Source: a virus
Lineage: Duplodnaviria; Caudoviricetes
Strand: one strand, 5' to 3'
IMG/VR virus record: IMGVR_UViG_3300011335_000278
Span: 3,447 to 67,446 of that record
Length of the DNA stretch: 64,000 bases
The position numbers were made by a program, and so were the translations under genes. This document shows, piece after piece, positions 3,343 through 55,400 of this stretch (positions are counted from its first letter, which is position 1; every line of letters begins with the position of its first letter). Below the pieces are notes generated by a model. That model saw only the letters and a program-made list of their open reading frames with translations, did no database searches and was not told where the DNA came from.

Positions 3343-3755
3343 TTTTTACCCTTCATATCCATGATTTTCTCAAGGGTTCTGCCGCCAAAGTAAAAGGACA
3401 TAATGAGCATACCCCACTGCCCAAGCAACTCAACATAGTTGTTGTTCACTTCAACATCCCATGCGGACATCATACCAAAAGTAGTGTAAGTTACCAAGAT
3501 AAATACTAGCGTCATTGGGCGAATGTTCTTAGATAGCCAAGAGTCTGACATCATGTCGGCTTGAACCCGCTTAGTCAATTCTTGTTGCTCGTTCATGTCT
3601 GCTTGTAATTTAGCCAACTCCCCTTGTTGAGCAAGTTGTTCTAAGGCTAGTTGCGCCGCTGCTTTTTGGTTTGGGTCAGGAATTACTTTATCAATAATAT
3701 TTAAACCAATTTTAACAACCTCATCAATTCCGAACATTAGTTTTCCCCTTTTCAC
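3339..3755 (-). CDS. Holin ('holin of 3 TMs' type); likely start 3737 (MFGID)
   Basis: DKVIPDP...SDSWLSKNIRP followed by two hydrophobic helices and YFGGRTLEK; immediately upstream of the peptidase. Confidence 0.75.
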   Translation of the reverse strand: MKRGKLMFGIDEVVKIGLNIIDKVIPDPNQKAAAQLALEQLAQQGELAKLQADMNEQQELTKRVQADMMSDSWLSKNIRPMTLVFILVTYTTFGMMSAWDVEVNNNYVELLGQWGMLIMSFYFGGRTLEKIMDMKGKK

Positions 3756-7924: not shown

Positions 7925-8193
7925 GGTTTAGGAATCTCGTCTTTTACTTTTTTAATTGTGGCTTTCCAAGCATCATATCCGCCGTGATACAAAGTATCAA
8001 GCTGGTCGGCAACACTAGGATACGCAACCATTCTTTTCTCTTTATACTGCTGGGCATCAATATATGCTTGAACTACAGCCTCATCATATTGAACTTCATT
8101 ACCATCCTTATCATAACAAACATCGCCAATTTTTCTTACAATATGTGGATGGCTTAATAGTATATATGCGCTTGTGTTGTTAAGAATAGCCAT
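7921..8193 (-). CDS. Probable tail-fibre assembly/chaperone protein, 90 aa
   Basis: Directly after the fibre gene; YKEKRMVAYPSVADQLDTLYH...IKKVKDEIPKP motif resembles fibre-associated small proteins. Confidence 0.55.
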   Translation of the reverse strand: MAILNNTSAYILLSHPHIVRKIGDVCYDKDGNEVQYDEAVVQAYIDAQQYKEKRMVAYPSVADQLDTLYHGGYDAWKATIKKVKDEIPKP

Positions 8194-10541
8194 TACTGTT
8201 TTATTTCCTGAATTGTGATTGATGAATTGGTAGCTGCATCCCTATTTAATTGAACCACACCGCCATTAACTAATAAAAGTTGGACATAGTATTGCAAAAA
8301 TCCAGTTGTGCCGTACGAACCATCTAACCATTGCATTGATGCGCTTGCGCCTTGATATGTGCTCCCCGTACTTTCATAACCAATAACATAAGCCATATAA
8401 AATGGTCCGCCTATTTGACTAGCCCCATTTAACAATACTCTGGCATTAGTGTAACCACCACCTGTAGGCGACCTAAATATACCACTTAAACTAACAGTAA
8501 TTAATAATTTACTATTTGCATAGTATGGGTAAATAGCCACGTTTACACTAGTATCACCCCAGTATCCGGGTCCGTAGCTATTCTCTGTCATAGTGTTAAA
8601 ACTTACAGTTTGCACAACTGCACCAACACTTACAGGTCCAGTAGGTCCTGTTGGGCCAGTAGGTCCCGTTGGTCCGGGGCTTCCAGTAGGTCCGGGTCCG
8701 CCAGAAGGTCCTGTGGGTCCAGTTGGTCCGGGACTCCCAGTTGATCCAGTTGGTCCAGTAGGGCCAGTAGGACCGGGTGCGCCTGTTCCACCAGTAGGTC
8801 CAGTAGGTCCAAGAGGGCCAGTAGGTCCGGGGCTTCCTGTTGAGCCAGTAGGTCCGGGAGGTCCGGGAACAGTAGAAGTAGGTCCTGTGGGTCCGGTAGG
8901 ACCAGTTGGTCCGGGAACGGTAGATGCTGGGCCTGTAGGTCCAGTTGGCCCTGTTGGTCCTTGAGGTCCTAAAGGGCCTGTTGGTCCTGTCGGTCCGGTT
9001 GGCCCTTGTGGAACTACAAAGTTAAATACCGCAGCAGTAGGAGATCCTACATTAGTTACAGATGCCGGTCCAGTGCTTGTTGTTCCTGCTGCTACTGTAG
9101 CTCCCGGTCCAGTTGGTCCTGTGGCTCCTGTTGGTCCAGTTGGCCCTATTGGCCCTGTTGGTCCGGGTGAACCCGTTGAACCTGTTGGACCTGTTGGCCC
9201 TAAAGGTCCTGTTGGCCCCGGTGCGCCTGTTGAACCTGTTGGTCCTGTTGGTCCAGTTGGACCTGTTGGACCTGTAGTAGCCGCCCAAGCATAGCCAGTT
9301 CCTGTCCATTGCAAGTATGTGCTTGCTGTTACTGGGGCAGGAGCAAATGTAGTAGCACTAGATCCACTTTGATAAGGTATTTGATTAGCCGCTCCACCAG
9401 CAATATTAGTAGAAGTTGTAGCAGATGTAGCAGTTGCTGCATTGCCGCCAATAGAAAATCCTGATGCGGTTCCAGTAATATTAGTACCAACTAATGAGCT
9501 AGGTGTACCTAAAGCTGGAGTTACTAAAGTTGGAGAGTTAGATAATACATTATTTCCGGAACCTGTAGATGTAGTAACACCTGTACCACCAGCTGCAACA
9601 GGTAGAGTGCCAGCAGCTAAAGCACTTGATGATGTAGAGTAAAGGGCATTGTTAGCCGCAGTAAATGTAGTTAATCCTGTACCACCGTAAGGAGGCTGAA
9701 CTGTTCCACCATTCCATGTACCCCCTGTAATTACAGTACCATTTAAAGCTAAAGAGTTTGTACCCCATTGAACGCTTTCAGGTATGTATGCGTGTACGTC
9801 CCATATACCAGCCACTGTGACATTAGCTAATAAAGATATATTTGCAGCGCCGCCGGGGGCTATAGTACCTACTGCTCCAGAAGCGTTATCAACAATAGTT
9901 AATGTGCCAGTAGCATTGTTATTAAATTCAAACGCAGTTGTGTTAGTTAGTGTTGTTGCATCAGGTAGTTTAAAAGTTTGCCCGCCCGTGCCGTTTAACA
10001 CCCAACTAAATGTAGATGCAACTGTTAATGTAGTTGTTCCACCAGCCGCTGTTACTGTAGTAGTGCTTTGGTTAAGTCGGTTAATAGATACATTTTGATT
10101 AGCATCCCGTAACATTACAGAATTAGCGCCAGATGAAGTTGTTACACCTGTACCACCATAAGCAACAGGAATAGTTGTTCCATTCCAAACGCCAGAAGTA
10201 ATTGTACCTAACGGTGTAACATTACCAGAAGCATCTAAGTTAACAGATTTACCAGCTGGGTAAGTAACAAATATGTTACAAGTACCTACAAATGTAACCG
10301 CAGCGTTAGAGTTTGAGGAAGAATAAACCGTTGTACGAGTTAAAGTAGGGCCTGTAGTTGAATATGTGCCAAGACCTACTTCCCAATTTCCAGAAGAATC
10401 GGTAGCAGCATAGTAAGTGGTGTTGGTATTACCAACAACCGTAAAAGACTGGAATCCGTCTACATTCCCAGTTAGTGTAAAACTAACAGTTGTGTTTGCA
10501 GTCCCAGTCTGTTGAACCCGGTCATAAACTACGAGAGCCAT
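8193..10541 (-). CDS. Collagen-like tail fibre, 782 aa
   Basis: Long (Gly-Pro-Thr)n tracts encoded at about 8630-9290; N-terminal virion-anchor region; GGTG shaft modules shared with 4146-6260. Confidence 0.85.
8630..9290 (-). repeat. Collagen Gly-X-Y repeat tracts (mostly GPT), three blocks
   Basis: 9-nt periodic DNA with synonymous variation, in frame within 8193-10541. Confidence 0.95.
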
Positions 10542-10551
10542 TTAGGACTCC

Positions 10552-11151
10552 TTAACTTGTAGCAGTTGTACTATATGTAACAGTAACAGTATCACCTGAA
10601 GTCACGGTTTTTGCTGTACTAAAGTTTCCTTCAGAATATAAAACTCCAGCCGTGCTTGAGATTGTACTAACAGCGCCTGTACCTGTAACCAAGAAACATC
10701 CATAAACTGTAGCTGAACCTGTCATTGTGTAGGTAATTGCAGTTGCAGTTGATGTTGTGACGTTTGATGGAGTTAGACCAGATGAACTTGCAGCAGCAAA
10801 TACGGCTGTTCCACGAACTGCTGAACCACCAACTGTATAAGTTGTTAGCTCAGTCCATGTTTTAGAAGTCATTGTATCTGCGGCAGCAAATGTTGTGCTG
10901 TTATTAATTAGACCTAAAAACGGTCCAACTGTAGTGTATGTACCAGATGTTCTGAGTAGTGTATTGAGCATTAACTCTTTACCTACGGCTACAACTAAGT
11001 TAGGAAAATTTTCTTCCCACTTTAGATTGCCAGAAGCATCACGACACTCAACAATATATTGACCATCAACGCCCATTCCTTCAGGAATAACAGCGTTAGC
11101 TTGTAATGTGGCTATAGCGTTATCGCCAAAACCTTGAATTTCTTTGTGCAT
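10552..11151 (-). CDS. Tail-module structural protein, 199 aa
   Basis: Thr-rich, beta-type composition; co-oriented in the structural operon. Confidence 0.55.
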   Translation of the reverse strand: MHKEIQGFGDNAIATLQANAVIPEGMGVDGQYIVECRDASGNLKWEENFPNLVVAVGKELMLNTLLRTSGTYTTVGPFLGLINNSTTFAAADTMTSKTWTELTTYTVGGSAVRGTAVFAAASSSGLTPSNVTTSTATAITYTMTGSATVYGCFLVTGTGAVSTISSTAGVLYSEGNFSTAKTVTSGDTVTVTYSTTATS

Positions 11152-27532: not shown

Positions 27533-27544
27533 AACTGCTAGGAG
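27533..27544 (+). promoter_or_regulatory. AACTGCTAGGAG motif overlapping an SD (copy 1)
   Basis: Exact 12-mer; ATG at 27553. Confidence 0.7.
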
Positions 27545-27552
27545 TAAATAAG

Positions 27553-27732
27553 ATGAACATTCAAGTAGAAATTCGTAGTGTATATGGTGTGAAGACTGTC
27601 TACCCAGTTTGCGATACTGCTAAAAGGTTAGCAACCCTGTCAGGCAATAAGACATTGACTAACTCTGCGATTATCACAATCAAACAACTAGGTTACAAAA
27701 TTGAAATAGTCCACCCAATGGTGGTTCTATGA
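27553..27732 (+). CDS. First early gene, 59 aa, not in the ORF track
   Basis: MNIQVEIRSVYGVKTVYPVCDTAKRLATLSGNKTLT...; strong SD. Confidence 0.75.
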   Translation: MNIQVEIRSVYGVKTVYPVCDTAKRLATLSGNKTLTNSAIITIKQLGYKIEIVHPMVVL

Positions 27733-28720: not shown

Positions 28721-28732
28721 AACTGCTAGGAG
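28721..28732 (+). promoter_or_regulatory. AACTGCTAGGAG motif (copy 2)
   Basis: Exact 12-mer; ATG at 28741 opens a 9-codon mini-ORF; preceded by a hairpin at 28694-28709. Confidence 0.7.
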
Positions 28733-28753
28733 TTTTAATCATGAATTTTATCA

Positions 28754-29125
28754 ATGTATCTTTATTTTAAAGGGGTAAAAATGAAAACTGTCATGGATTT
28801 GAGTGGTTTTACTGGCACTGAAAACTATTGGAGAACTTGTGCGTTCGCACCGAAACTGGTTCACACAGATGGCGTTCAGTATTTTGCAGATCATGCGAGG
28901 GCTTACTGGTTCTTGGACATCATTGGAACAGAGTTTTACAGTGGCTTTGCTGATGATTTTGTTAGCATCAAACTGACTGTAAAAAATAACACGGCTTGTA
29001 TCACAGTTACAGATGGTGATGACAATGTTATCAAAACAAAGGACATCGAGTTTACAGACTGTCCTGAAGGCATCTACAAGTTTTTTTTGACTAACAATGT
29101 TCTGATGCTCACCTCAGAATACTAA
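28754..29125 (+). CDS. DUF6876-like protein; likely start 28781
   Basis: HTDGVQYFADHARAYWFLDII...IEFTDCPEG...LMLTSEY pattern (family recalled). Confidence 0.6.
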   Translation: MYLYFKGVKMKTVMDLSGFTGTENYWRTCAFAPKLVHTDGVQYFADHARAYWFLDIIGTEFYSGFADDFVSIKLTVKNNTACITVTDGDDNVIKTKDIEFTDCPEGIYKFFLTNNVLMLTSEY

Positions 29126-30364: not shown

Positions 30365-30376
30365 AACTGCTAGGAG
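30365..30376 (+). promoter_or_regulatory. AACTGCTAGGAG motif (copy 3)
   Basis: Exact 12-mer; ATG at 30382; preceded by a 13-bp hairpin at 30318-30347. Confidence 0.7.
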
Positions 30377-30381
30377 ATATT

Positions 30382-30699
30382 ATGGATTTTCAAAGAGATT
30401 TAAAAGTTGGCGAGTATATTCTTATGGGCTGTGGCTCAGACAATAACGGCAAAAGGGATCAAATTTCTGCTTTGTGTTACTGGCGGAACAGTCCTGACAA
30501 GGCCAAAAAACATATGCATGAGATTTGGGAAAGAAATAAAGGCGATGTGTATTACTTGTTAAGGGTTGAACGAGTTGTATGTTCGGGCAGTTACCCGATG
30601 GTTATTGATCTACCCAAACCAGTTGAAAGAGTAAATTTAACACTGGAAAAGGCTGAAGGCGATGACTGGAATGTTTATCAGGGAGAAGGAAATGACTGA
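30382..30699 (+). CDS. Hypothetical early protein, 105 aa
   Basis: ORF with a strong SD (within motif copy 3). Confidence 0.65.
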   Translation: MDFQRDLKVGEYILMGCGSDNNGKRDQISALCYWRNSPDKAKKHMHEIWERNKGDVYYLLRVERVVCSGSYPMVIDLPKPVERVNLTLEKAEGDDWNVYQGEGND

Positions 30700-34823: not shown

Positions 34824-35613
34824 TGCTCTTCTTCATTCTGTTAATTGTTTTCATTAGTTCTGCATTACGATTTTGAAACATGTCTCGGCTTTCTCGCAAA
34901 GCTTTGTTATCAATCTCCAAAAGCCTGATCTGCTCTCTCAGGTCTTTGATTGTTTCTTCCACATCAATTTTTTCAATATCTGATGCATCCCATGAGCCAA
35001 TTGCAATTTGATCTTTTATCTGCGTATTCTCTTCCACAACTTCGTTAACAGTAGAGGTCAATTCTTTAATCTTTTGCTGTAGCTGTTCAACCTCACTTGG
35101 CTTTGCAACAGTCCCTTGATTTGTAGTATCTACCGCATATTCTTTGCCTTTGCGAATAGCTTTTTTCTTTGCCGGCTGTTGCACATTGGCCTTCTTTTTA
35201 ATTCTGCCAACAGTCATTGCGCTTACGCCAACCCAGTCAGCTATGGCCTTATTTGACCATTGTCCCCATTCTTTATCATTTACCATCGACAGAACAATAT
35301 ATTGATTATCTTTGGCGCTCATGCTCATGCCTCGACCTTTGTTAGCCGTTTTAGAAAACAATTGGGCATCTCGTAGTGTGCCCTTTCTAATATCAACCGA
35401 AATCTCTGTAAAACCAAGTCTCTTGTGCGAAAAATACCGATGAAATCCATCCGCCAACCAATATTCTTTACCGTCAAAATAGACAATAACAGGAGGCATT
35501 AAAACTTTTTCCGAGAGTAAACTTGCATACTCTTCAACCATATTTTCATTAATTTCTGCTCGTGGCTGTGTGCCTCCGTCAATGCGGATTTTTTCAATCT
35601 GTAAATGAGTCAT
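34807..35613 (-). CDS. ParB-like N-terminal domain protein with a C-terminal coiled coil
   Basis: IRIDGGTQPR...PPVIV...WLADGFHRY; an HTH-like SNKAIADWVGVS segment. Confidence 0.8.
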   Translation of the reverse strand: MTHLQIEKIRIDGGTQPRAEINENMVEEYASLLSEKVLMPPVIVYFDGKEYWLADGFHRYFSHKRLGFTEISVDIRKGTLRDAQLFSKTANKGRGMSMSAKDNQYIVLSMVNDKEWGQWSNKAIADWVGVSAMTVGRIKKKANVQQPAKKKAIRKGKEYAVDTTNQGTVAKPSEVEQLQQKIKELTSTVNEVVEENTQIKDQIAIGSWDASDIEKIDVEETIKDLREQIRLLEIDNKALRESRDMFQNRNAELMKTINRMKKSNGTKT

Positions 35614-35690
35614 TTGTTTCTCCTAAAGGGATGTGATCCAATGTTTCTTGGAAGTTGTTTCAAGTATTTTTTCCTAGCAGTGGAATGTCC

Positions 35691-35719
35691 ATTGTATAAA
35701 ACTATTTTGCCAATTGCAA
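35691..35719 (-). promoter_or_regulatory. Sigma70-type promoter of the replication operon; ACTGCTAGGA motif just downstream (35672-35681)
   Basis: TTGCAA-17 nt-TACAAT. Confidence 0.65.
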
Positions 35720-35997
35720 CAAAAATTTCACATCTGTTTTTCAAAACGATAGTTCCCCCAAGGGTGATAAGCCCACATCCATTCAAGAAGTCTATCCTGA
35801 ACTAATGCTCCCAAAGGTAATGTTCAATCGTCATGGTAGTTGTCTCACCACTGTCCACCATAACTTGTGTGATACCCATTTAAGTCCACGAGGCATGCAA
35901 TCGGGTGAAGGATCAGCCTATGTTTTTTTCCACGCTACCCATTTAGGTACTTACTATCGTGCGGAGTACGCTGTTATTTGAAACCTAGCAGACAGAC

Positions 35998-36026
35998 AGA
36001 TTACACCAACTAAAAAAAATATGCAA
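35998..36026 (-). promoter_or_regulatory. Sigma70-type promoter; its transcript would begin CUGCUAGGUU
   Basis: TTGCAT-17 nt-TAATCT, immediately after the sRNA terminator. Confidence 0.55.
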
Positions 36027-36034
36027 TAGTTTTA

Positions 36035-36069
36035 AAAGAAAAACCCCCAGATTTTACTCTGAGGGTTTT
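36035..36069 (-). terminator. Intrinsic terminator of the candidate sRNA
   Basis: AAAACCCUCAG-AGUAAAAU-CUGGGGGUUUU-CUUUU. Confidence 0.75.
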
Positions 36070-36162
36070 GGGGATCGTGGATCCTTTTGGGCTTGCCGAA
36101 GCACAACTGCTAGGTTAGTGTAGACGGCATATCGAATTTTCGTGTGAAGGAGCATTCGACAT
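36035..36162 (-). ncRNA. Candidate small regulatory RNA, about 125 nt
   Basis: Has its own promoter (36167-36196) and terminator (36035-36069). Four hairpins; G-U wobbles form only on the minus strand; no ORF with an RBS. Confidence 0.65.
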
Positions 36163-36166
36163 AAAG

Positions 36167-36196
36167 AGTATACCCTACATATTAGATTTTTGTCAA
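36167..36196 (-). promoter_or_regulatory. Near-consensus sigma70 promoter
   Basis: TTGACA-18 nt-TATACT. Confidence 0.75.
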
Positions 36197-36469
36197 ACAG
36201 TCATTGTCAAACAACCAACCAATCGTTTTTCTGTGTGCTTCCTCCCACATTTCCACACGCTCCTGTTTAGACATTCGTGTGCCTTGGTCTAATTCCATAT
36301 GGCAACCGTAACATAGTGCTGAAATACGGTAATCGTGGGCTTTGATACCGCGCCCCTTGCCATCTCGCAACTGATTACTGTGCGCAGCCACCACCGTCCC
36401 ATCCCGAATTCCGCAATTTTGGCACGGGGATTCCCTGATTATCTCTAATAGTTTCTTGTTTCTGTACAT
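36182..36469 (-). CDS. DUF1364/DUF968-like Zn-binding protein (possible nuclease/recombination), 95 aa
   Basis: PCQNCG...VVAAHSN...GKGRGIK...LCYGCH. Confidence 0.7.
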   Translation of the reverse strand: MYRNKKLLEIIRESPCQNCGIRDGTVVAAHSNQLRDGKGRGIKAHDYRISALCYGCHMELDQGTRMSKQERVEMWEEAHRKTIGWLFDNDCLTKI

Positions 36470-36858
36470 ATATAGCCCCGTCTATTTCGGTTAAAACATA
36501 CCCCATCTTGGCGTATTCTTTTTCAACATCTGCCATCGTCATCTTCATAAACAATCCGTTTAGCTGTTTGATACAGTTTCATTACCAAACTGGCGTTAAT
36601 AAATATGGAAGTGCCGTGTTCATCATAAAAACTTACATAATCATCATGGGCAGTCATGCACTCGCCGTCTTCAATATACACCCCATCATCTAAAATAAGC
36701 ATAATTTCTCCTTGGTTAAGTTGACCGGATATGTAGATTACTTGCCGGCCTCAAGTTTTTGAAAGGGTTGAGTGATGGTGTACTTTTGCGGGGGTCCATC
36801 ACCCACCATGCTAATAGCGCTTTGTATCTACAAGACTAATCGCCGAACACTATAAATA

Positions 36859-37188
36859 TCAACCCCCTAATCCTCGCTTGCTCTTTAATATTTCGTTCAA
36901 TAATTTTTCTTTTTCGGTACTAACTACTTTTAAGTTATTGACTTTTAGATAATTTGATGATAAGCAATAACCATTTGGTGAATACATAGATCCTGTAATA
37001 ATATCCATAAACCGAAATCCTGTCTGCAATATTAATGGCGTAAAGTATCTTTGTCCTAACGGCGTATCGCCTGTATATATCTTTTTTCCTTTTAACCAAT
37101 TTTTCATTACAACTTTTTTTGGACTAAACAATGGAAAACATTTGTTAGCCAATGCGTAGGTGTTATATGAATCACAATAATCACTCAT
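36859..37188 (-). CDS. Hypothetical protein, 109 aa
   Basis: Co-oriented ORF; FMDIITGSMYSPNGYCLSS. Confidence 0.55.
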   Translation of the reverse strand: MSDYCDSYNTYALANKCFPLFSPKKVVMKNWLKGKKIYTGDTPLGQRYFTPLILQTGFRFMDIITGSMYSPNGYCLSSNYLKVNNLKVVSTEKEKLLNEILKSKRGLGG

Positions 37189-41625: not shown

Positions 41626-42081
41626 TTATTTTTCACGAATAATTTCAATAACTTTTTTTTCTCTGTTTATGGAAGTCATAATAGACTTTGAACCCCATCT
41701 TGAGTTTGCCCTTGCACATAAATTTGCTTGCAATTTAGGGCCATCATATTTATCAAATGGCACGGCAATAAAATCGTTAACATTTAATTTGTCAAGAATA
41801 GGGTTTACATATTCTTTAAATGACTGTGTTCGAATAATTTTTTTCTTTACCTCTTCTTCTGGCATGTTTGAATATTTTTTACCATTGGGAAGATTTACCG
41901 TATACAAACAACCTCTTGCACTCAGCATATTAATTGCATTTAACACAGCCTGTAACTCTAACTTTGAAAACTGTGGTTCATCGTTGTATTCAATAAGTTC
42001 ACTTGGTGGAAACAAAGTTTTTAAAACCTTTAAATTATTCATGCTTGCTCCTTTAAATAAGATTGATATTGAGTACACCAA
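41626..42081 (-). CDS. Hypothetical protein; likely start 42042
   Basis: aaggag RBS before MNNLKVLK. Confidence 0.55.
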   Translation of the reverse strand: MVYSISILFKGASMNNLKVLKTLFPPSELIEYNDEPQFSKLELQAVLNAINMLSARGCLYTVNLPNGKKYSNMPEEEVKKKIIRTQSFKEYVNPILDKLNVNDFIAVPFDKYDGPKLQANLCARANSRWGSKSIMTSINREKKVIEIIREK

Positions 42082-42914
42082 TTGCTAACTTGACAATATG
42101 ATTCACAACGAGTGCGCTCGCCTTTACGAACTTCTACTTCATACCCTTTTCCTAAATCTTCCATCTTTACATCTGCTTCTTCTTTGGTATTAAATACATT
42201 TGTTGCTCTTTTGTTGCCAACTTTTTTAACCGCATATGTAGTTGGCTTTTCCCACATTTGCTCTGCCGTACATTTAGGTAAATCACCATCTGTTTCTAAT
42301 GCAAAATCACTAGCACTATGAATTGCTATTTGCCTAGACACATATTGCTCTCTATCCGCCATTGACCACAAAGTAATTGGAACTTCTTTAATTGGTGACT
42401 GTGGGTAAAACTCACGAGTTTCTGACTCTCTTCTGCTCCAATCTCGCAAGATTGCCACAATCCCAACATCGGTTACTCGAACATTTTTTACCATTTCAAC
42501 TAACCATGCGTACATGTTTAACTGAACTTCCCATTCATACTTCTCATTCATTACAGCCCAAACACTGGTTGTTTTGTAATCTTTGATAGATATGCCATTA
42601 GGGTTAACTATTTGCAAATCAATAGCACCTGAAATATTCCACCCATCGTGCTCAATGTGCAGTCTTTCCTCTATCAAATGATTAGCATCTTTGCCATGCT
42701 CCAAAATGTTATGAACCGCAGAACCAAAAATAGACCACACCATATCAGACGCATCCTGCTCCAAATGATCTTCGTACTTTTTCATTAAGCTAACAATCTG
42801 TGGGCTGTTAAGTAACTGCGTTACCGACAGATGCGCTTTGCCTTTAGAATACGTTGGGCGTTTTAAAACATTAACAAATGTTTGTGGAATGTTTCTTTTA
42901 TTGGTAATCTTCAT
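42039..42914 (-). CDS. PD-(D/E)XK (Cas4-like) exonuclease, 291 aa
   Basis: SVTQLL...GSAVH...ISGAIDL...IKDYKTT...QLNMYAWL...RCESYCQVSNWC; heads the recombination operon. Confidence 0.85.
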   Translation of the reverse strand: MKITNKRNIPQTFVNVLKRPTYSKGKAHLSVTQLLNSPQIVSLMKKYEDHLEQDASDMVWSIFGSAVHNILEHGKDANHLIEERLHIEHDGWNISGAIDLQIVNPNGISIKDYKTTSVWAVMNEKYEWEVQLNMYAWLVEMVKNVRVTDVGIVAILRDWSRRESETREFYPQSPIKEVPITLWSMADREQYVSRQIAIHSASDFALETDGDLPKCTAEQMWEKPTTYAVKKVGNKRATNVFNTKEEADVKMEDLGKGYEVEVRKGERTRCESYCQVSNWCTQYQSYLKEQA

Positions 42915-42919
42915 TATTT

Positions 42920-42931
42920 CTCCTAGCAGTT
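42920..42931 (-). promoter_or_regulatory. AACTGCTAGGAG motif (copy 4)
   Basis: Exact 12-mer on the minus strand; ATG at 42914. Confidence 0.7.
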
Positions 42932-43047: not shown

Positions 43048-43413
43048 ATGCCTTACAAAGGGGGTTTTATGATACAACTTATTTTGCCTTATCCACCTAG
43101 TGTAAACCACTACTGGGGAGTGTCTGGAAAACAAAGATTTATTGGCAAAAAAGGGAAGATATTTAGAGCCGATGTTTTAGATGCCATGGTTGATTTTGGC
43201 GGCACTGAACTAACTGGCAGACTCTCTGTGCATGTGTCGTTGTTTCCACCTGATCGCAGGAAACGAGATCTAGACAATGTTTTAAAACCATTGTTAGATG
43301 CTTGCGAACATGCTGGTTGTTATGTAAATGACTCCCAAATAGATGAGTTGCACATTATCCGTCAAGACATTCGACCTAACGGATCTTGCACAATTATCAT
43401 CTTAGAAATTTAA
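43048..43413 (+). CDS. rusA: RusA-like Holliday junction resolvase; likely start 43069
   Basis: LPYPPSVNHYW...PPDRRKRDLDNVLKPLLDA...NDSQI. Confidence 0.9.
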   Translation: MPYKGGFMIQLILPYPPSVNHYWGVSGKQRFIGKKGKIFRADVLDAMVDFGGTELTGRLSVHVSLFPPDRRKRDLDNVLKPLLDACEHAGCYVNDSQIDELHIIRQDIRPNGSCTIIILEI

Positions 43414-46400
43414 AACCCAGCCTGTTTTCTTCTTTCTATAACATCTTTAAGGATGTTTTCTTTTGTTTGCTGGAATTCTAAAATCTTTTGCCTACGTTCA
43501 TCTGGCGTACCTGTTTGTTTAGACTCGCCATACATTCTAATAATGCGATTTATTTCTGCTAAACTTGCACCCACCCCTTGAGTGTAACCGTGCATTTCAA
43601 TTAACTTTTGATTTTCTTTAAGGAACTTCTCCGCTCTTTCGTGTTCTTGGCGTGTTGGCCCATGTAAGTTTTGGAAAGTTTTATATGCAGTATCAGTTTT
43701 AGATTTAAGGTCATAGAACAAGTCTTCCCTGCCTCTTTTTACATCTGCCATAACAAACCCACCATACAATGGATTGTCTTTGTCCTGCGGCGTTACACGA
43801 TCTCCGTTGAATATGTTTGAGCCATACATGGCTATAACGCCGGCTGATCCAAATAGTCCACGCACAATGTGGTCTGCTTGTATTGGAGAGAGCATTCTAT
43901 TATCAGTCAAAGGAATGCTAGTCAAAGCACTTATTATTTTTCCTAATTCAGAAGTTTTTTCATTGTATTGTTGTGCTGGAATTAAACCTTCTAAACCTTT
44001 TGGCGTTACTGTAGATCCTGTAAAGAAACTATAATCTAAACCAATTTCAACAAACGGCAATGCGCCAGACGGTATGGGTGTTGGCCCAAGGAATGCATCC
44101 ATGGCGGCTGTCATTAGTGCTGTACGCAACCGCCTGTTATCTACTTCATTCTTGGTGCCATCTTTAGTAACATAGTTGTATAGCATTTCTGGCACAGATT
44201 TGAAGAAGAAGCTGGCAGACGTATTCATTGGAATTTTAATATTTAATCCGGGAATATATATGTTGCGTAGCTTAGTTTGGTCATCTAACTTGTTGTATTC
44301 ATCATCATCACCCACCAACATACAATAAATCATTGTTGTGCCGGCTAACAGTGCGCCAGTTTTTAACATTTGGTTAAATAACTCTTCTCGTGTTTTGCCT
44401 TTAACTCCACCGCCACGCAATGTCTCTGCTAACACATCAATAGACACAGCGTATGCATTCATAAATGAAACATTTCTAGCTAAAAACTGTGCTTTTGCTG
44501 AACTACCTTTTTTAAGGAAGTCTATTACATCATTAGATTGAATTAACGCCTGCATTGGGTTGTTTGTTTCTTTTAAAACCTGTTTGTAAACACCAATACG
44601 CTGTGAATAATCAGATGCATCACCAACCTTATCAATAAGGTTTAATGTTTTTGCCCAAATTTTATCGTCAATTAAACCAAGTTTAATTTGCAATTCTTTT
44701 TGTGGAGATCTTGCCACTGATTGATAACCGCCAATGCCGTATGACTTTAACATATCTACAATTGGGTCATTAGGTAACAATGCTTGTACAAATCCTGCGT
44801 AAGCTTTTGCCCATAACGCAAATGGATTTTTTACTCCGCTAATCCATGCTGCAGCCGGCGCATCTTTAAATGCTTGTTTTAACTGAAAGTATCCTGAAAA
44901 TGTAATACTTCTTCGTAAAATGTTTGACGTAATTGCCAAAATGTCATTCATTGGAATAAATATATTTTCTAATCCAAGTACAGATTCAGCTATTAATGGA
45001 TCTTCAATTTTAACAATGCTCTTTTTACCATTAATTCGTACATTATATTTAACACCTGTTCGATCTTGTTTTTCACTTTGATATCGAACAATCTTACCGT
45101 TTGGTGATCTAACAGCGTATTCAGCCGTAATACGATTTGCAGCGTAATTTTTGATTGAATTGCGTGTCATCATAGCTATGTTGTTTAGCATATTATCTAT
45201 AATGTCATCAATTTCAGGCAATGTTTCTACATAATCTGCAATTACTTGATCCAATTCTGCCTGCGTTATTTCACCGGCATCAAATTTAGCTTTAGCCCTT
45301 TTAACTTTTGGAACTTCTCTAAACTCTTGTAGCTTGGCTATATTTGTTAAACCACGCACAGCTGTTTGTGTGGCTGGCTGTCTGGAAACAGAATGTATAT
45401 CATCATCCTCTTCCATAATTCGTTGCCAAGGAACATAATCTTTTATTTCTTTTAATCTATCAACTCTTTCCTGACCTAAATATCCAGAGAAGGCCGCCAT
45501 ATCTAACATGTTTTGGTTTACTTTTGTCCAGTTATCTAAGATAGCTCTTAATTCTGGATAATCATTTTCCATTTCTAAGAAATCGTCTATTGCTTCTTGG
45601 CTAAATCGTACCTTTACTCTTGCACGGAAGACATCTTCTAAATGAGCTTTTGCTGTTTCTAATTTGGCTAAAGTTTCTAAGTATTTTTCATCTACTACCG
45701 TTAGTAGTTCGTCTTGTAATTCTTGTATACGATTTTCTGCTGTTTCATATTCATTTAAGATACTTTGAGATCTGGCTGCCTCAAGGTAATCATTAATCAT
45801 ATTGGTAGCATCTTGCAATCCAATTTTTTTAACTAATTTAGATTTTTCCCGCATTACATTTGCCATTCCAAAATTTCTTCTTACCGCTTGGAACATTTGT
45901 GTGGCTTCATTAAACTCTAAAGCCCCACGGGCAATAACTTCTGTAGCTATATGGCCTGCATGAATAGCATTAATTAATGAAACATACGAAGTGGCTTGAC
46001 CTATGCTGTTGACTAACTGACCCCCATACTTTTTAATATCCGCCAGTTTTAATCCGGTACCAAAGAAAGTAGCTTTATTGCGGAAATTAACTAACGCACG
46101 TTCTGCGTTACTTGTCATGTTATTAATTGGCGCAATTGGATCTTTTCTTAATTCATCAAGCGCTTGTTTACCACCAGTAAGCATGTCTTGAACAGTGGGC
46201 GATTGGTTGGTTGGAGTATTTTTAACTCTGTTATGTTTAGCACGTTTTCTTCTGTAATTTTCATCTCCGGAAACCCGACTAAAGTAACCAGCAGTGCCAG
46301 CCCGTTTTTGTTCTTGGCGCTCCCTGTTAATTTCTGCTTGAGTTTTTACTTGAGCAGTTTGCAAAGATGGGAAGTTTACTGGCTCTGTACGACCAACATA

Positions 46401-49400
46401 CTGTTCGGCAGCGCTCAACAGCTCAACGATGTCTCCATCAGAAAAACTAATAGTAAGCCCTTGGCTTCTTAACCAATTGCGTATGGCTTGTATAACACGC
46501 TGTATTAGCCCTGTTTTGTACATGCCACGCTCTGCCATGTTGGCTACAATTTCTTTTGCCCTACGCTCCGGTGATAATCCGGGCTGTGTTTGATCTACTC
46601 TGGCAGCTATTCCTTTAACAAGACTAGAAGTCTTTTCTAAATTTTGTATATTTTTAATTAACACTGCCATTAGTTCTGGTCCCAACATCTCTTCTAAGAG
46701 AGCATGACCAATGGCTTCGTGGGCTAAAACTTGTTGTACTCGTTTTGCATTTGGTAAATTATCTGCAATTAAATATACAGTTCTACCTGATATCCACATT
46801 CCCTCTACATCAGACGGAGCAGTGTTGTCAGGCAACTCATCTACAGACTGTAAAACATTAACTGTAATTCCTTTTACAGGAACAACTTGTGCCTGAACTG
46901 CCTCAACACTTTGTCCACCTTCGGCAACAGTGCGTGATGCTAAACCTTTTTTAGTCTCACTGTTATCAAATTCAACTTTCATTACTTCACGAGCAAACGG
47001 CGCATTATCTGCTTCTACTGTTGCTGGAAAATTTTTATGTAAAAACTTTATTAATTTTATTAATTTTTCTGGATCTTTTAAAGAATAACCGGGACCCATT
47101 TCCCATTTTCCTTTTCCTTTTTTAGAAAGATCAGGACCCGGAATTAAAGTTTTAAGTATTGGATTTGTTACAAATTTCTTTGGCACATCTCCTGCAATCG
47201 TAACTTTAAAATTGTCCGGTGTATACGGATCAATTCGTAATTCCCATGTTTGTGCTGATCCGCGCAATATGACAGCGTTTGATGGCCTTGCTTCTGCTTT
47301 GTCAGCAAAACTTGGTAAATTAGGAATCATTAAAGGTTGCAAACTATTACTTAAGTCTTTATACAATTCAACTTGAGAAGTGTCATATCTTTTTTGTAAT
47401 ATTGCATCCCAAACAGCTAACAAATATTGTGCGGCAGATTCTTGATTTCTTAATCGAATTGGTTGTTCGCTAATTGCAACTGGTACATATTTAGCTGGCA
47501 TAACCACGCCTGATATTGCTTCTTTAGTATTGTTTAATGTAAATTTAGCAATTTCACCGCCATTTGGGCCAAATAATTGGGCAGCTTTTAATATGTTTCC
47601 TAAAGCTATATATCTTGTTGTTCTTCCACCAGTTACGGACTTTAATGCAAACCATTCGTCCAAAGGAGGATTTCTCCATGGGCCACTTTGTTGAATTGAT
47701 GAGCCTTCTAATGTTGCTAAAGTTGGGGATACTCTACCTTCAGGAATATTCCGTTTAATAATAACTTGAAAGTTTGATGGTGAATAAGGATTTCCAGTTT
47801 TTGATTTTCCTATTCGTGCTTTATCTACTTTCAATCCAATAACTACAGCAGCAGCTGGAACATTGTTAACTTCAAACGATTCAAATCCATTACCTATGGC
47901 ATACACGTTTTTTAATGCCGACAAAGTTTTTTCTTTACGGTCATTTAAAGTAGCAAATTGTGTATCTAATGCAGTTTTTTGTTTGTTTAATTCTGCTATA
48001 TCTTTTTCAGTTGCTGCTGGATTTTTTATAGCCTCATCAAGTGCTTGTTGTTTAAGAACAATTTGATTACGCACTTCAATATAAACCGTACTTAAATCTG
48101 TTTCTATTTCATTAACAACGTCTTGCGCTGTTCTGCCGTTTAATGCAAGAGCTATATCATCTTTTATATTTTGTACAGTAGGTATAGAACCAATAATGTC
48201 TACGTTAAACTGTGCCATTACAACATCGGTTAAAAATGGGTTTGTGCTATCTAAACCTTCTTCAATTAAATTTTCTTTAATTATTTCTGCTTCTAACGGC
48301 AACACCCTACGTTCTAAAGCATTTGTTCCTGTAGCATTTCTTAAATCTATTTCTGCTATATAGCTGGCCTCAATAGAATCAAAAAATTCTTTTTGGTCTA
48401 CTGATGATAATAACCCTGCTGTTCCTGATGCTGTATGCGCCAAATCGGTTCCAGCTGCTTCTGCTGGATCTGGGTATTGGGTTACATTTAAAAATGCTTG
48501 TATATCTGGATGTTCATTTAAGTATTCCGCTGTTGATACATCGCCGTACATATTAATAAAATCTACGCCGTCAACTTTTGTACTACTAGATCCGCCAGAC
48601 GTATTTGATTTTAAACTAGACAATTTTTTACGCAACATGGCTAAAATTCGTCTTTCAGCTGGTATTCCAGTTGCTAACATAGTAAATGAAGGCCATTCTA
48701 CTTGGCCTGTTCTATGTATTCTGCCTAATAATTGAATAAAAACACTAATGTCCCCATGTGGTTGCAATACAATCATGTGCCGTGGGCGTTGATCAAATGC
48801 ATCTACTGAGGCATGTAACGATATACCTGTTGCGCCAGCTGAGTTAATTATTAATACATCAATTGGTCCTGTTTTAGATTCATCGCCATTTTGGAATGAC
48901 GAAATCATACTTGTGCGTTCAGGATTATCTAAAGTTATATATTTTGGTATATCTCCAGAATAATCTATTCCACTTTTTCTTCCTGTAATTTCTTTTACAA
49001 CCAAATGTCTTGCTTTAACCCCTTTAGGTGGCGTGTCACCAACATGTACTTTGCCATCAATAGTCCACACATACTTTTGTTCTAATTCTGTGCGTATGTA
49101 ATCAATTGGCGCAGCCGGCAAATCTGATTGAAAGTTTATAAGAGCATTTTCAACATTGTTATATCCAGCTCTAATTGATGGCGGCATTACATCATTAGGA
49201 ATATATACAACTTTATCCATTGATTTATCGCCAGTAGCAGATTTTAAAGTTACTTTTTTAGTAGAATTTACAGCACGTTTAATTAATGTTTGCCATCCAA
49301 AATCAGGAATGTCATCACCTTTTTTAATATTATTCTGTGTAACAAAATCTTCTAATGCGCTACCATTGGTATTTTGTAATCCCACAACTACTTTTTCATT

Positions 49401-52400
49401 GTTGTTTAGTTTTTCAACAACCATGTCCACAGCAGTTTGAGTTTTAGTTGATAGTAATAAAGATCCAATATAGTTATGAACAACAGATGTAAACGCATTA
49501 GCTTTTACTTGATTAAATGCTGTTGGTCCAACTTTGCCAATATACGATCCCGGAGGGCCTAATTTAACTATTTCAGCTTGGCCTGCAGGAGTTTTCATCC
49601 ATTCTTTTAAAGCTCGATCTGCGTTAACTAAAGCTCTTAATATTTCTGTAACTTTGTCAACTTCTCTTGTATCTCTTGCAGTATTTTTATCATCAATTAC
49701 AAAGTCCATTGTTACGCCTTCATACGATCTTTCTCGGCGTATCATTGAACCAGATTCTACTAACATTTCTGAAGACACCTGTTGCAACACATCAGTTCTT
49801 ACGCCTTTACCAAACAAAGCGGTTAAATCTTCTGGAGTGTCGGCGGCATAACGTAAATTTGTATGGATATACAACGGCATATTATCTGGACGTTTTGCAA
49901 ATGTAGCAGACAAATAAACCGTTGGCGGTGGTTGCCAATCATCGGGAGCATCTTGGCCTTTACCTAACAAATCTTTACCTGTTAACAAAGACATAAAGAA
50001 AGCATTTTGACCAGTTGATTCTTTGTCGGCTGGTGATCCGGCAGCGTTATGGGCTTCATCCATAATTAATACAGCATCACCGCTTGCAACTAAAGATGCT
50101 ATTGCTGATTGTCTTGGTGGAGATCCTGTGCCGCCATTTAATTGCGAATATGTTGTAAATAAAACATCTTTACCCGGTGGTAATTTTTTATTTTTTGTTA
50201 TATATTCAACTAATTTTTTACTATCGCCTTCTTTATTTTTAAATACTGATTGTGTTTTGCCTTCCCCAATGTCTTTAATTATTTCTGAATCTGTGTTGGT
50301 CATGGCAACTTTAATATCTCCGTGACCAATATTAATTAAATCTGCATACATTGCAGTGTATAAAGAATCACTAAGAGTAACAAATACGGGAACTTTTCCT
50401 TGTTTTTTTGCCCAAACAATCATGGCTGCCGCTGTTCTGCCTTTGCCTACGCCAGTGTCATCGCCAATAATAAAACCTTTGCCAAGTTTATTGGCTTGAA
50501 TTGCTAACGCTAATGCGTCAATTTGGTAGCCGGCAAGACCTTTTGCCATTTGGTCTACAGATGAATAACCTAATTCTTGGGCAACAAATTCATCTATGTT
50601 ACCAACTTGCGCCTCTAAATTTTCCAACGCTGTATAAGCATGCTGTGATTGCGCACGGGGCAAGTAAATACCATCGCTTGCAAATCTTGATTTGCCTAAA
50701 TAAACAACTCGTGATTCTGTATCAATTGGCTCACTTTGTACTGGTGTTTGATTTTTAGGTCTTCTTTTTACTGTTGTTCTAAGCCCATTAATATATTGGC
50801 GTAAATGAACTTTAATTAAATCACCAAATTTACTAACTAATAAATCATAAACTTTGTTAATGCGTTCTTTTGTATCTTTAATTTTTTGTCCAACAGCTTC
50901 CCAAACTTTTTGAATAATTGGTTGTACGTTAGCATAATCTTGATCACCTTTTCTAGAATAAAGCCCACTGTTAGGATCATTGCTAGTATTTTTTGTATTT
51001 TGAGCAATACGATCCATTGCTTCTTGAGATTGTTTGTCTAAACGCTCTTGGCTATCTTCTAAAGTTGGTTCTTTATTTGTTACTTCTGGCGCTTTACCGT
51101 TTAATGCAGCATCTAAATCATCAAGCAAACTTTCAAGTCCTAAACCTTCTAATTCTTTTGGAATAACTGTTTTAACTCTAACTTTTTGACCTTTAGGCGC
51201 TCTTGGTCCGCTAACAACTTTAGGTTCTCCTTTAGGTGTTGTTGTTCCTGTTTTTGGTTTTTTTCCTAAATTGTCAAATATATCGTCTAAATCTAGGTCA
51301 GAAAGTCCTCCCAGTTCATCTCCTGATTCTCCACTTGATACCTCGCCTCTTCCGGTGGTGCCGGCTGCGCCACTTCCGGATCCCCCTCGTTGACCTTCTC
51401 CGCTATCCTGCTGCTGTTCTGTATCACGAACTCCACCAGCTGTTCCACGTCCTCCGGATTTGGGAGGTATGTTGACCCCTCCTGTCGGAGATACTGGTTC
51501 GCCGATGCCAGCGCCCGTTCCAGTCCCCACTCCTCCGCTAGTTTCGACATCTTCAAAACTATCGCTTGTTGGTACTCTTCCGGTTGTTGTATCTGCACCG
51601 CCAGTAGGTTTCCGTGTTTTTCCGGTACCCACCACGACTTGTTCGCTACGATCACTGGCTTGAACATATCTGCTCCATAATTCATCAAATGATGTTAATC
51701 TATTAACCGCAAAATCATTTGGATATACATTGTCCGTTTGATTTCTACCGGCAATAACTAAGACACGCAACGGAAAAGACGCACCTTGTTTACGATATAA
51801 ATTTCCAGCAATTTCAAAATGGTCAGCAACATTATAGTTACCATATAACCAATTTAAAAATATTTTATCTGTTGATGTAATAGTATTTAATTTAGGATGC
51901 GATCCTAATATTAAAAAAGCTCTACCATTATTTGCCATTGTTCTTAATGATTCAGCAGCAATTAATTGATCTAATGCACCAATTTTGTAAGGTTGACCTG
52001 TCCAAGACATAACATCTACAGGAGATGGCAATGATCCAAATGGTGGATTTGCAAGAACTACATCTACTTGTTGATCTTGTATATCTTTTATTTTTACTAA
52101 TACATCGCCTTCTATTACATCACCCATTTGCATTAACTGTAAATTATTAACACGGTGTTCATCTTTTTCTATTGTGGTTACATTTTTAGGGTTAGCCGTA
52201 ACTACCAACATTCCATTTCCGCCAGTTGGGTCTAATACTGTAGTAGTAGATTTAACACGAGACAACATGCCGGCAATAAATCCAATTGGCAAAGGAGTAG
52301 AGTAGGCATTATTAGTTTTACTTAATATAGTTTGAACATCTAATACAGGTTGATTTTGATACAAGTTAACAATGTAATCATAAATAGCTTTAGTATCTGA

Positions 52401-55400
52401 TCCTTCTGCCCGCATATCAGTAATAACTTGACTAACAAACCTTGTTGCTGCTGCCTCAAAATCTTCTTGAGTTTGTTTTAATTTAATCCGATCACCTTCA
52501 AAATCGGCAATTTTATAACTGTCTATTTGTTTTTGGTCTTTAGCAGGGTTAAATCCCAATAGTTCAGGTGATTGTAAGTACGCTTTTATGCCATATTCAG
52601 CTAATTCACGGTTGTTCTTAGGCCACCATCCTTGACGCATATGGTAAAACATAGATTCAGCCATTGAACCATTTTTAATTTCAGGCCATTTAAACAAGCC
52701 CATTTCTTCCATAATGGCATCAATCCGTTGTGCCATATTGATAATGTGTTGGTTTACTTTGCTAATTTGAATTAATCGTGGCGTTAATATTTCTTCTCTG
52801 CCATCACGTTCTTCTTTAGCTTGTTGTGCTTCTGCTTCAGTTTTAAACCAATTTAAACCACCAGCTTGCCCACGATCAATATAAAACTGATCAACTACTG
52901 CATAGCCTAAATCTTCTACATAAATAATTTGATTTTCTAATTTGTATGTTTTTACTTCTAAAGTATCGGGATCAATTTGATCCAACATCTGTTGATATAT
53001 TTCATTAATTTGAGCACGTTCTTTACCGGCTGGGTAAGAAGTTCCAGCATACCCATTCTTTTTAGATACATATCCATCTGCAACTGTTGGGCCAACAAGG
53101 TATGGGGAGCCGCCTTTTGACAAATCAAATATTAAAGATTCAAAAGCCCTAGACAACATTTCTACTGGAGTACTCCAATATTTTGGATCTCTACCTTGGT
53201 CTAATGCATACGCATCTTTAAAATATTGCGTGTAAACAAATGAATCATCATAAATATCTGCTTCATGGTAACGTCTATTTGAAATTGCATTAAAAAATGC
53301 TTTTTTAGGCGGAATGTTACGGTTGTTTTCACTATTTGATGTATTAGTTAATATATCCCGTAAATTATTTTCTACTTTATCTACAGTTATAATTTTTTGT
53401 AACGCAGCTCCTGTATCAGTCATTAACAACTTGCCATTAGGAGTTTGTTTTAAATTCCAATCTAATCCGTGTTGCCATTCATGCCCTAATGAACCATCGC
53501 CTTTTGTTTTGGTTAAGTTTATTTCATTAAGAGATGGAAAATACCAAGCCGCAGTTTTACCGCCACGGCCTTGCGCACCTACTGCTAGTTTTAATTTTTG
53601 CCCCAATCCCAACATATGGGGTGATATACCGGCAATATCCGCTAGGTCATACATTGCATCGTAAATTGCATTTAAATGCGCTGCTCGTTCTGTTTGATTA
53701 ACCCAATTACCAAAATCAATACCACCCGGAAAAAATTTAAATGTTTCTAAAAAGTCTTGTACATCTACATCTCGTCCTTGCCGGTGATCACGCATGCCAC
53801 GGCGAATAATGTTACCTAACTCTGGTGGGCTTTCTGCATCTTTCTTAACAATTCTGTTTGTTTGATCAGTTGAATTTTCGTTAAGATTAAATAAAGAAAA
53901 TAATGTGTTTAAATAAATAGACATATTATTTTCAGTAATTTTGGTGCGTAAATTTAATCCATCTGGAGTGTATTTTTCAGCTCCTGTTAATTGCTCATCC
54001 TTAATATATTTTGTTTGTAATGCGTTAAACAACGGTGCAACATTAGAATTTTCAGTAAATACAGTTTGTAATTGTTCTAAAGTATTTACATACTCTGTTA
54101 ATACTTCTTTAATTAAATCTTCTTTACCTTCAGCTAATGCTAGTTTGATAACTTGACGCTTACCAGCTTTAGGTGGAATGTATATATTAAATCGTCCACC
54201 CTTTCTTGTTGGTAATGAAATTATTTCATACAAATAATCACCGGCTGACATAACTTTATCTATCAGCCCTTCTTTAAACATCATTGCACCAAACGTATTA
54301 TCTGGATTAGATTGAATGTCAAATATTTTGTCTTTACTTGCCAAATCTAACATTTTTGTTATTTGTGCATCTGTTGCATCTTTTGGCAATGGAGCTGCGG
54401 TAATTTGACCTTTACGATTTTTTACAAATTCTGCACCGCCACCTTCAATAGTTATTCTTTCAGGGTTAAATAATGCTGATATGGTAATTCTTTCAGGCCC
54501 TGTATATGCTGGATCATCTGTAGTTGCTGGAACAGATCGGTCAGTAATACGAAATTTGTTTGCAGTTAATTGTTCTTCTATTTTACTTAAAAAAGATAAT
54601 TCAACTGGAATACGCAATAACATTTCTTCTGGAAAAATAACAGGCAGTAAGTTTTCATCAACAGCGTGACCATATAACAGCGCTGCAACCTCATCTGCAT
54701 TGCCAGTTTCCATGGCAACCTTCATTGGGTTTGTATTAAACTCTTCTACTTTCTTTTTTTGTTCTTCAGCTTTCTTTTTCTTTTCGTCCGCAGCTTTTTT
54801 CTCTTCTTCTTTTTTAGCCTTCTCTTCTTCAATGGCTTTCTTTTCTTCTTCAGTTGGTTCTACTTTTGCTGGCTTTTTTGGCTTTTCTTCTTTTGGTTCT
54901 TCTAATGGCTTGCCTGCCGGTGCTGATGGACCGCCTGTTGGCTTTTCTTCTGTTGTGGTTTTTTTAACTTCTATTTCAAAACGCTGCCGAAGAAATTTTC
55001 CTTTGTCTACGGTATTTGCTTCTAAACTTTTACCTGTATGTAATATAGAATTAATTTGCCATGTTCTTCCTTCGTATTGAAATTTATCTCTTAGATTGTA
55101 TTTTCCTGCTGGTAATTTAGGTAATACCTTTTCTTTCGGTTCTTTTTTAGGCATTGCCAAAATTTGATCAGGCGTAAAGTTTGCAATCTGTTCAATATCT
55201 TTTAATAAAATTGGTTTGTCTGTATCTTGATCGTGGAAGCCGTATAAAATTTCACCGTTTGCGTGTCGGCTTTCAGCGTCTTCTCTTGATGTTACTTCTT
55301 GCCCATTGTCAATTATGTCTTTTAAAGTATATATGGGTTCTTCTACAGGTTCTGCTACTCCTGCTGGCGGTAAAGGTTCTTCAGCTTTTTCAGCTTTAAT

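Follow-up and report, generated by a model that had tools for sequence, protein, structure and literature searches.

A conserved small RNA gene in an uncultured freshwater phage is complementary to a sequence tag at the ribosome-binding sites of several of the phage's own early genes

The DNA analysed here (the window) is a stretch of 64,000 nt, positions 3,447 to 67,446 of the IMG/VR virus record IMGVR_UViG_3300011335_000278. It makes up most of that 67.4-kb record, which is rated complete and belongs to an uncultured freshwater phage. Directly behind an open reading frame (ORF) for an HNH endonuclease lies a candidate gene for a non-coding small RNA (sRNA) of about 125 nt, followed on the same strand by two further putative promoters and by ParB-like, helicase and primase genes (Table 1). 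A 12-nt tag lies over the Shine-Dalgarno sequence (SD) of four genes elsewhere in the window, shorter copies stand at the start of two leader RNAs behind the sRNA gene, and the sRNA carries the complement. We consider it probable that this one trans-acting sRNA base-pairs with a private tag at the ribosome-binding site (RBS) or 5′ end of several early genes of its own phage, in a form of anti-RBS control.

The initial annotation of this locus, made from the DNA letters alone, described a promoter, a transcript of about 125 nt without an ORF, and an intrinsic terminator, all on the minus strand. The promoter and terminator were recovered (Table 1), and we infer from their anatomy that the sRNA is transcribed. 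At the same position, relatives of the phage keep the form TTGAC-N17/18-TAnAnT, often with an extended TGn. The predicted RNA has a minimum free energy of -41.6 kcal/mol (z = -5.06), and none of 200 shuffled sequences folds equally well; the opposite strand of the gene gives a z of -2.58. The proposed fold of four hairpins with a displayed CUAGCA was also reproduced, the bases of that loop having unpaired probabilities of 0.84-0.99 in the fold ensemble of the window RNA. The description as ORF-less needs a correction, as a 33-codon ATG ORF without an SD lies inside the window sRNA (36155-36054). No ORF is conserved among 38 sRNA homologues, 10 of which have no ATG ORF of any kind, and a coding model for the sRNA was rejected. 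The last codons of the HNH ORF (36182-36215, minus strand) encode a peptide, ...GWLFDND..., that is kept in several relatives and holds the -35 hexamer of the sRNA promoter; in the window this segment has two tandem copies of TTGACA.

Table 1. Positions of the features discussed, in window coordinates except where a related locus (L number) is given
Feature	Position	Strand	Remarks
HNH-endonuclease ORF	36182-36469	minus	sRNA gene follows directly
sRNA promoter, TTGACA-18-TATACT	36196-36167	minus	consensus scan, 11 of 12 matches; overlaps last codons of the HNH ORF
Predicted non-coding sRNA, about 125 nt	36160-36036	minus	5′ end placed from the -10 element; 3′ end at the terminator U-run
Hairpin 1 (5′ hairpin)	36130-36160	minus	5 of 5 modelled pairs with compensatory double changes, 40 sequences
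Seed segment, sRNA nt 45-58	36103-36116	minus	core CCUAGCAG at 36114-36107; CUAGCA is the loop of hairpin 2
sRNA intrinsic terminator	36069-36040	minus	12-bp stem and T-run; 9 of 10 modelled pairs covary
Tag	27533-27544	plus	over SD of the first small gene (27553-27729, 59 aa) of the rightward early block
Tag	28721-28732	plus	over SD of a 9-codon mini-ORF ahead of the DUF6876 gene (28754-29125)
Tag	30365-30376	plus	over SD of a 105-aa gene of unknown function (30382-30699)
Tag	42920-42931	minus	over SD of a PD-(D/E)XK exonuclease gene (42039-42914), 5 nt before the ATG
Putative P2 promoter, TTGCAT-17-TAATCT	36026-35998	minus	directly behind the sRNA terminator; read from sequence
Tag copy, 5′ end of the P2 leader	35982-35991	minus	10 nt complementary to the seed
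Structured RNA, about 230 nt	35743-35970	minus	on the putative P2 transcript, between the P2 tag and the P3 promoter; separate from the sRNA
P3 promoter, TTGCAA-17-TACAAT	35691-35719	minus	consensus scan; upstream of ParB-like/helicase/primase genes
Tag copy, start of the P3 leader	35673-35681	minus	9 nt downstream of the -10 element
Possible extra target	10560-10569	minus	10 nt complementary to sRNA nt 49-58; 19 nt upstream of a tail-fibre gene (8193-10541)
RF02932 in relatives	L033:9572-9691; L004:4733-4853; L016:872-994		examples; 8 further loci

The tag is over-represented in the window and is placed with respect to genes. Its 12-mer, AACTGCTAGGAG, occurs in four exact copies, all of which cover an SD. 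When up to one mismatch is allowed there are five matches against 0.23 expected, and none of 100 shuffles has as many; the 8-mer CTGCTAGG is present in seven copies against 1.26 expected. All copies share the orientation of the surrounding genes, with the copy in the sRNA gene as the sole exception. Exact complementarity to nt 45-58 of the sRNA extends over 11 nt at 27532-42, 12 nt at 28719-30, 10 nt at 30365-74 and 11 nt at 42922-32, so that the perfect pairing of 10-12 nt claimed initially for these four sites holds. It reaches 10 nt at the P2 leader copy (35982-91) and 9 nt at the P3 leader copy (35673-81). Hybrid energies between the sRNA and the tag sites are -16 to -21.5 kcal/mol, compared with -6.8 kcal/mol for an anti-SD of the E. 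coli type at the same site.

The tagged sites differ in how they relate to promoters and genes. At 42920 the tag sits at about +2 of a putative TTGACA-17-CATAAT transcript, and the shorter copies at 35984 and 35673, between the sRNA and the ParB-like/helicase/primase genes, stand 6-9 nt behind -10 elements. The initial annotation had placed both leader copies just downstream of promoters. For P3 this agrees with the consensus scan; P2 fails the scan, though its TTGCAa-N17-TAAyCT is kept in position and sequence across relatives. The promoters before the tags at 42920 and 35673 are the only ones in front of a tag that pass. No promoter was found before 27533, 28721 or 30365, the latter two being operon-internal RBS sites, and no further conserved block precedes the tag in 122 distinct contexts. 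The tag therefore most likely acts in RNA; a promoter role is unlikely, and a promoter model for it was rejected. The DUF6876 gene has its own SD and starts 21 nt beyond the tag at 28721, inside or behind the tagged mini-ORF (region 28741-28770, plus strand), an arrangement that could reflect translational coupling or a leader peptide. The match ahead of the tail-fibre gene may be a late-gene target or may be due to chance.

The sRNA belongs to a conserved RNA family. The ParB-like protein encoded downstream has thousands of metagenomic relatives, some of them 81-93% identical; 80 viral loci at 40-52% identity were taken first and more were added later. These were searched with nhmmer and then with a covariance model, R1, built from 12 relatives with the window excluded. 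R1 detects the window sRNA with 48.5 bits (E about 1e-8), and about 50 of 81 related viral loci yield homologues, located upstream of ParB and in the ParB sense. Members of the family share a TTGAC-N17/18 promoter with an extended -10, followed by three hairpins and the terminator, the seed lying between the 5′ hairpin and the second one; in the window and some relatives a long-range stem around the seed takes the place of that second hairpin. In the R1-based alignment, which is itself fitted to the covariance model, 98.5% of cells pair compared with 83.6% in shuffles, while sliding the partners by 1-3 columns leaves only 34-58% pairing. Double compensatory changes are seen in 16 of its 20 pairs. 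RNAalifold on a plain MAFFT alignment of all homologues recovered the terminator alone; a sub-alignment and the covariance-model alignment were needed for the rest.

Within this family the seed is both conserved and accessible. Its core CCUAGCAG is invariant or nearly so across 54 homologues. The mean unpaired probability is 0.80 for UAGC compared with 0.42 for the rest of the RNA, and the seed is the more accessible part in 36 of 38 homologues. The seed was first described as a displayed loop, and this is true of the window and a few relatives; in most members it is a single-stranded linker between hairpins 1 and 2. No matching family was found at the locus when 35000-37000 and 35900-36350 were scanned against Rfam 15 at E values up to 10, either for the sRNA in general or for C4 in particular. 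One candidate, the Bacillus sRNA ncr1575 (RF02452), scored 34 bits against a gathering threshold of 60 bits, matched mostly the terminator with large internal blocks skipped, and was rejected.

Around one quarter of the ParB-related loci (for example L007, L011, L012, L024 and L047) have neither the sRNA nor an RBS tag, so the entire module was gained or lost together. Another locus carries a divergent, shorter sRNA-like gene (L194:4643-4720), which matches R1 weakly and has a promoter and a terminator; the canonical seed is absent. Its complementarity to its own ParB RBS and spacer, 10 nt, is within chance expectation and is not evidence of pairing.

Further support for pairing comes from the behavior of the seed and the tag across relatives. 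The 42 distinct loci examined with the sRNA (671 kb) contain 133 tag 8-mers, 70 of which are sense RBS copies 7-10 nt before a start codon, and the others are present at about the number expected by chance. Orthologous genes retain the tag, among them DUF6876, the 105-aa gene (in L074, for instance), ParB and a 155-aa gene. RBS tags are found in 46 of 55 loci with the sRNA (139 sites) and in 1 of the 18 loci in which it is missing from a retained upstream region (2 sites; Fisher p = 2.7e-9).

The two partners also change together. The seed of L072 is CCUAGCGG, and the RBS tags on four separate genes of that locus read CCGCTAGGAG, pairing a CGG seed with a CCG tag. Its close relative L061, in which the sRNA region is cut off, has five such CCG RBS tags. 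Loci with a CAG seed have 66 CTG and a single CCG among their RBS tags. A scan of viral contigs for further type-A sRNAs with a CGG seed returned none. The seed region of L063 and L065, CUUAGCGG, departs from the canonical sequence at several positions. It pairs over 15 bp, with one mismatch (-21 kcal/mol), with the equally diverged P2 leader of its own locus, on which canonical seeds reach no more than -6 to -7 kcal/mol. Between L043 and L023 there is a single-base difference in the seed flank of the sRNA, matched by a complementary difference in the leader. When sRNAs were permuted among loci, the mean extension of pairing into the leader flanks was 1.04 +/- 0.17, compared with 1.69 for each locus with its own sRNA (p = 0.0014; also 0.0004), and the same comparison at RBS tags gave p = 0.02. 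Pairing runs on into these variable flanks to an extent that depends on the locus, for a length of up to 15-17 nt. These results, a conserved family with covarying structure, co-occurrence with the tag, and changes shared by seed and motif in at least two lineages and by seed and leader flank, support the initial proposal of trans-acting pairing with a motif of several early, recombination and replication transcripts.

What the initial annotation overlooked is how well conserved the target immediately behind the sRNA gene is. Of 47 distinct loci, 30 have a stretch of 8 nt or more that is complementary to their own seed, its start lying a median of 45 nt beyond the 3′ end of the sRNA; control windows average 5.3 nt. 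By this comparison the P2 leader tag is the most widely conserved of the predicted sRNA partners. In the window it is followed by neither an SD nor an ORF. Between it and the P3 promoter lies the structured RNA of about 230 nt, which has no Rfam match. Its DNA is 78-89% identical in loci whose ParB proteins are only about 42-52% identical, and 19 of its 47 predicted pairs have compensatory changes among 9 sequences, a long-range closing helix being among the parts so supported. This RNA could serve the replication genes as a leader or a riboswitch-like element. A different RNA, RF02932 (Betaproteobacteria-1 RNA), is found in 11 of the 18 relatives tested, about 100 nt behind the sRNA terminator on the putative transcript headed by the tag. 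The window has no match to RF02932 at E values up to 10; in the window and about 10 loci the unrelated 230-nt RNA occupies that place.

In two relatives the leader tag appears to have a partner in cis as well. At L016:745-880 and L004:4620-4740 a 14-15-bp helix is predicted between this tag and an internal anti-tag lying some 100 nt downstream, which contains CUCCUAGCGG and resembles the sRNA seed. The helix encloses three small hairpins (-50 kcal/mol). The sRNA could compete with this anti-tag.

These observations bear on whether the main job of the sRNA is a local one. The pairing might be real and directed chiefly at the adjacent P2/P3 leader, its structured RNA, and hence the ParB-like, helicase and primase genes, with the distant RBS tags secondary or weak, much as c4 acts on icd/ant of P1 or antisense RNAs control plasmid copy number. 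The breadth of conservation of the leader tag fits such a role, as do its flank co-variation, which is the clearest at any site, the structured RNA (RF02932 or the 230-nt RNA) into which the leader always runs upstream of the replication genes, and the long cis helix with a seed-like anti-tag in L016 and L004. However, RBS tags are numerous (139 in 55 loci) and are retained on orthologous genes, and their switch to CCG together with the seed at 4-5 separate genes in L072 and L061 is hard to explain without selection for pairing. This is a serious alternative, though one of emphasis rather than of kind, and we regard a mainly local function as unlikely.

Several points weigh against RBS occlusion by the sRNA in trans. 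All of the co-occurrence and co-variation statistics ignore shared ancestry. The clear switch of seed and RBS tag comes from one lineage (L072/L061), a second lineage contributing only two sites, and the single CCG tag among CAG-seed loci, in L064, goes the other way. When duplex energies were ranked without constraints across all start regions, the targets did not stand out, and exact-match and anchored-pairing counts were used in its place. Half of the pairing segment sits in a stem in the window fold. The predicted cis helix of L016 and L004 makes structural remodelling possible rather than simple occlusion. Finally, the two A's that precede the tag stay conserved in cases where pairing with the sRNA is impossible for them, which means that the tag is under some constraint in addition to the sRNA.

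This last point raises the question of whether the tag instead serves a protein of the phage or the host, as a DNA operator or as a site on RNA, with the copy in the sRNA gene as one more site and co-variation reflecting shifts in protein specificity. The tag is a fixed 12-mer in which conservation of the first two A's does not depend on the sRNA flank, as would suit a protein, and four tag copies lie within about 10 nt of -10 elements; co-variation at the DNA level alone cannot separate a protein partner from an RNA one. The arrangement of the tag is another matter. It is strictly gene-oriented and phased 7-10 nt from the start codon, many copies are operon-internal with no promoter nearby, and the sole inverted copy falls in the accessible part of a conserved, covarying RNA that ends in a terminator. 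An RNA-binding protein would see the tag and not its complement, and a fixed site does not predict locus-specific extension of pairing into variable flanks. No repressor of the CI/Cro type, with its helix-turn-helix (HTH), was found in the record. We give a protein site very little credence.

It is also conceivable that the sRNA pairs with the tag to activate or process its targets, by guiding maturation by RNase III, opening an inhibitory fold or protecting a 5′ end, or that the P2 leader is a sponge for the sRNA. Three tags are at extreme 5′ ends of transcripts, where pairing can alter decay, the cis helix of L016 and L004 could be opened by a competing RNA, and the P2 tag of the window has no SD or ORF to occlude. 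At the RBS sites, however, the SD itself would lie under the duplex, and the seed of most relatives contains a full anti-SD (CUCC); by established sRNA biology such pairing blocks initiation. No inhibitory structure was seen around the RBS tags, and no search aimed at such structure was made. Of the explanations weighed here, activation or processing seems to us the least probable.

Our preferred model of pairing at the RBS can be set out as follows. Host RNA polymerase of the sigma-70 type would transcribe the sRNA from its near-consensus promoter, and the intrinsic terminator would end the transcript. The accessible seed, with its core, would then pair over 9-12 contiguous bases with the tag (A)ACUGCUAGG(AG). 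The tagged SDs belong to the exonuclease/recombination operon, the DUF6876 gene and small genes of unknown function, and the tag also heads the two leader RNAs that run into the ParB-like, helicase and primase genes. A duplex over the SD would block 30S subunits, probably followed by mRNA decay; we consider the 30S block the most likely step because the duplex covers the SD. As a stable sRNA builds up, a scattered set of genes would be turned down together, in what may be an RNA-based early shut-off or timing device. The analysis shows the gene, its structure and conservation, and the complementarity, co-occurrence and co-variation described above; repression, its timing and any need for a chaperone are what we infer.

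The initial annotation had noted no obvious CI repressor or integrase, and six-frame searches of the complete record agree with this: neither a tyrosine integrase nor a CI/Cro-type HTH (HTH_3) repressor was found in any frame. No lysogeny genes were detected in the record, and the phage is apparently lytic. Its leftward early block also includes genes for an Erf-like annealing protein and a sigma factor, and a RusA neighbour.

The locus was not found in any cultured or GenBank phage examined. DNA searches of GenBank phages with the window locus and with that of a typical relative gave no match. The nearest cultured phages by terminase (about 54% identical) are 023Pt_psg01, DSL-LC04 and Pelagibacter phage HTVC027P, none of which is matched by R1. 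In the bacterial genomes examined the ParB relatives are distant and lack the sRNA, and the search gave neither a prophage copy nor a firm host. Full-length ParB matches in bacteria are mostly in metagenome-assembled genomes of Burkholderiales and Rhodocyclales, and these, together with the RF02932 neighbour in relatives, hint weakly at betaproteobacterial hosts. A single ORF of 4683 codons (43410-57461, minus strand) takes up about one fifth of the genome.

The closest known system in logic is c4 of P1 and P7. The c4 RNA, from the immI region, is processed from an operon transcript, controls icd-ant of a temperate phage and maintains immunity. It acts on ant mRNA around the RBS and determines heteroimmunity (PMC12197685). 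Both c4 and the sRNA are small structured phage RNAs encoded just upstream of a target on the same strand, their exposed segments pairing, or predicted to pair, around an RBS of the phage's own mRNA, and in both cases matched changes in RNA and target set specificity, here CAG/CTG compared with CGG/CCG. The differences are substantial. The c4 RNA has one target transcript, whereas here there are at least four RBS and two leader candidate targets in three transcription blocks. It is cut from an operon transcript, while the sRNA has a predicted promoter and terminator of its own. P1 and P7 are temperate, whereas no lysogeny genes are detectable here. There is no sequence or Rfam relationship between them, and the sRNA is not a member of the C4 family. 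RF02932, in turn, is a separate RNA of unknown function, a neighbour of the sRNA in relatives and not a relative of it. A 2025 review divides phage sRNAs into cis-antisense RNAs (OOP, sar, sas and aQ), c4 of P1/P7, and prophage sRNAs acting on host genes, and none of those reviewed has a multi-operon regulon of the phage's own genes (PMC12197685).

The tag, for its part, resembles the SAS repeats (start-associated sequences) of Cluster K mycobacteriophages. Private and asymmetric, these repeats are about 13 bp long, contain AGGAG and are found 3-7 bp before the starts of many non-structural genes and conserved across subclusters; the authors left open whether RNA or protein binds them (PMC3203893). 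Four Cluster K genomes each hold one SAS copy that points the opposite way and is unconnected with a gene start (PMC3203893). The tag described here is likewise a private asymmetric repeat with AGGAG just upstream of many start codons. Its sequence and the host phylum are different, and no partner has been identified for SAS, whereas here the inverted copy sits in a conserved, co-varying sRNA gene. By analogy, the lone inverted copy of SAS might also belong to an sRNA gene.

A third comparison is with the lytic phage T4, which uses the same logic of post-transcriptional shut-off of scattered early mRNAs through their RBSs. T4 RegA is a translational repressor, and RegB is an endoribonuclease that cuts GGAG. 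These recognizers are proteins, whereas in the phage studied here the recognizer would be an RNA and the element a private tag.

It is tempting to speculate that a private RBS tag with a single mirror-image sRNA is a general, so far undescribed RNA program of lytic phages. Such a program would switch a scattered early regulon off (or on) and possibly exclude close relatives, its specificity could be re-set by matched mutations in seed and tag, SAS of Cluster K would be another instance, and the sRNA would also gate a structured leader RNA (RF02932 or the 230-nt RNA) before the replication genes. This wider proposal is tentative, and we hold it with less than even confidence.

The known phage antisense RNAs (c4, sar, OOP and P4 CI) each act on one neighbouring transcript, mostly in temperate phages. 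Here, comparative evidence ties one sRNA to tagged RBSs spread over several operons, in an apparently lytic phage family, one abundant in freshwater metagenomes. The orphan RF02932 and a newly found structured RNA are likewise assigned to a defined regulatory module upstream of phage replication genes. If our model is correct, private RBS tags such as the mycobacteriophage SAS would gain a concrete partner, and a 12-nt tag with a 125-nt RNA would make up a compact, reprogrammable regulator with natural orthogonal variants. Early shut-off, which is protein-based in T4 (RegA/RegB), would then be achievable by RNA.

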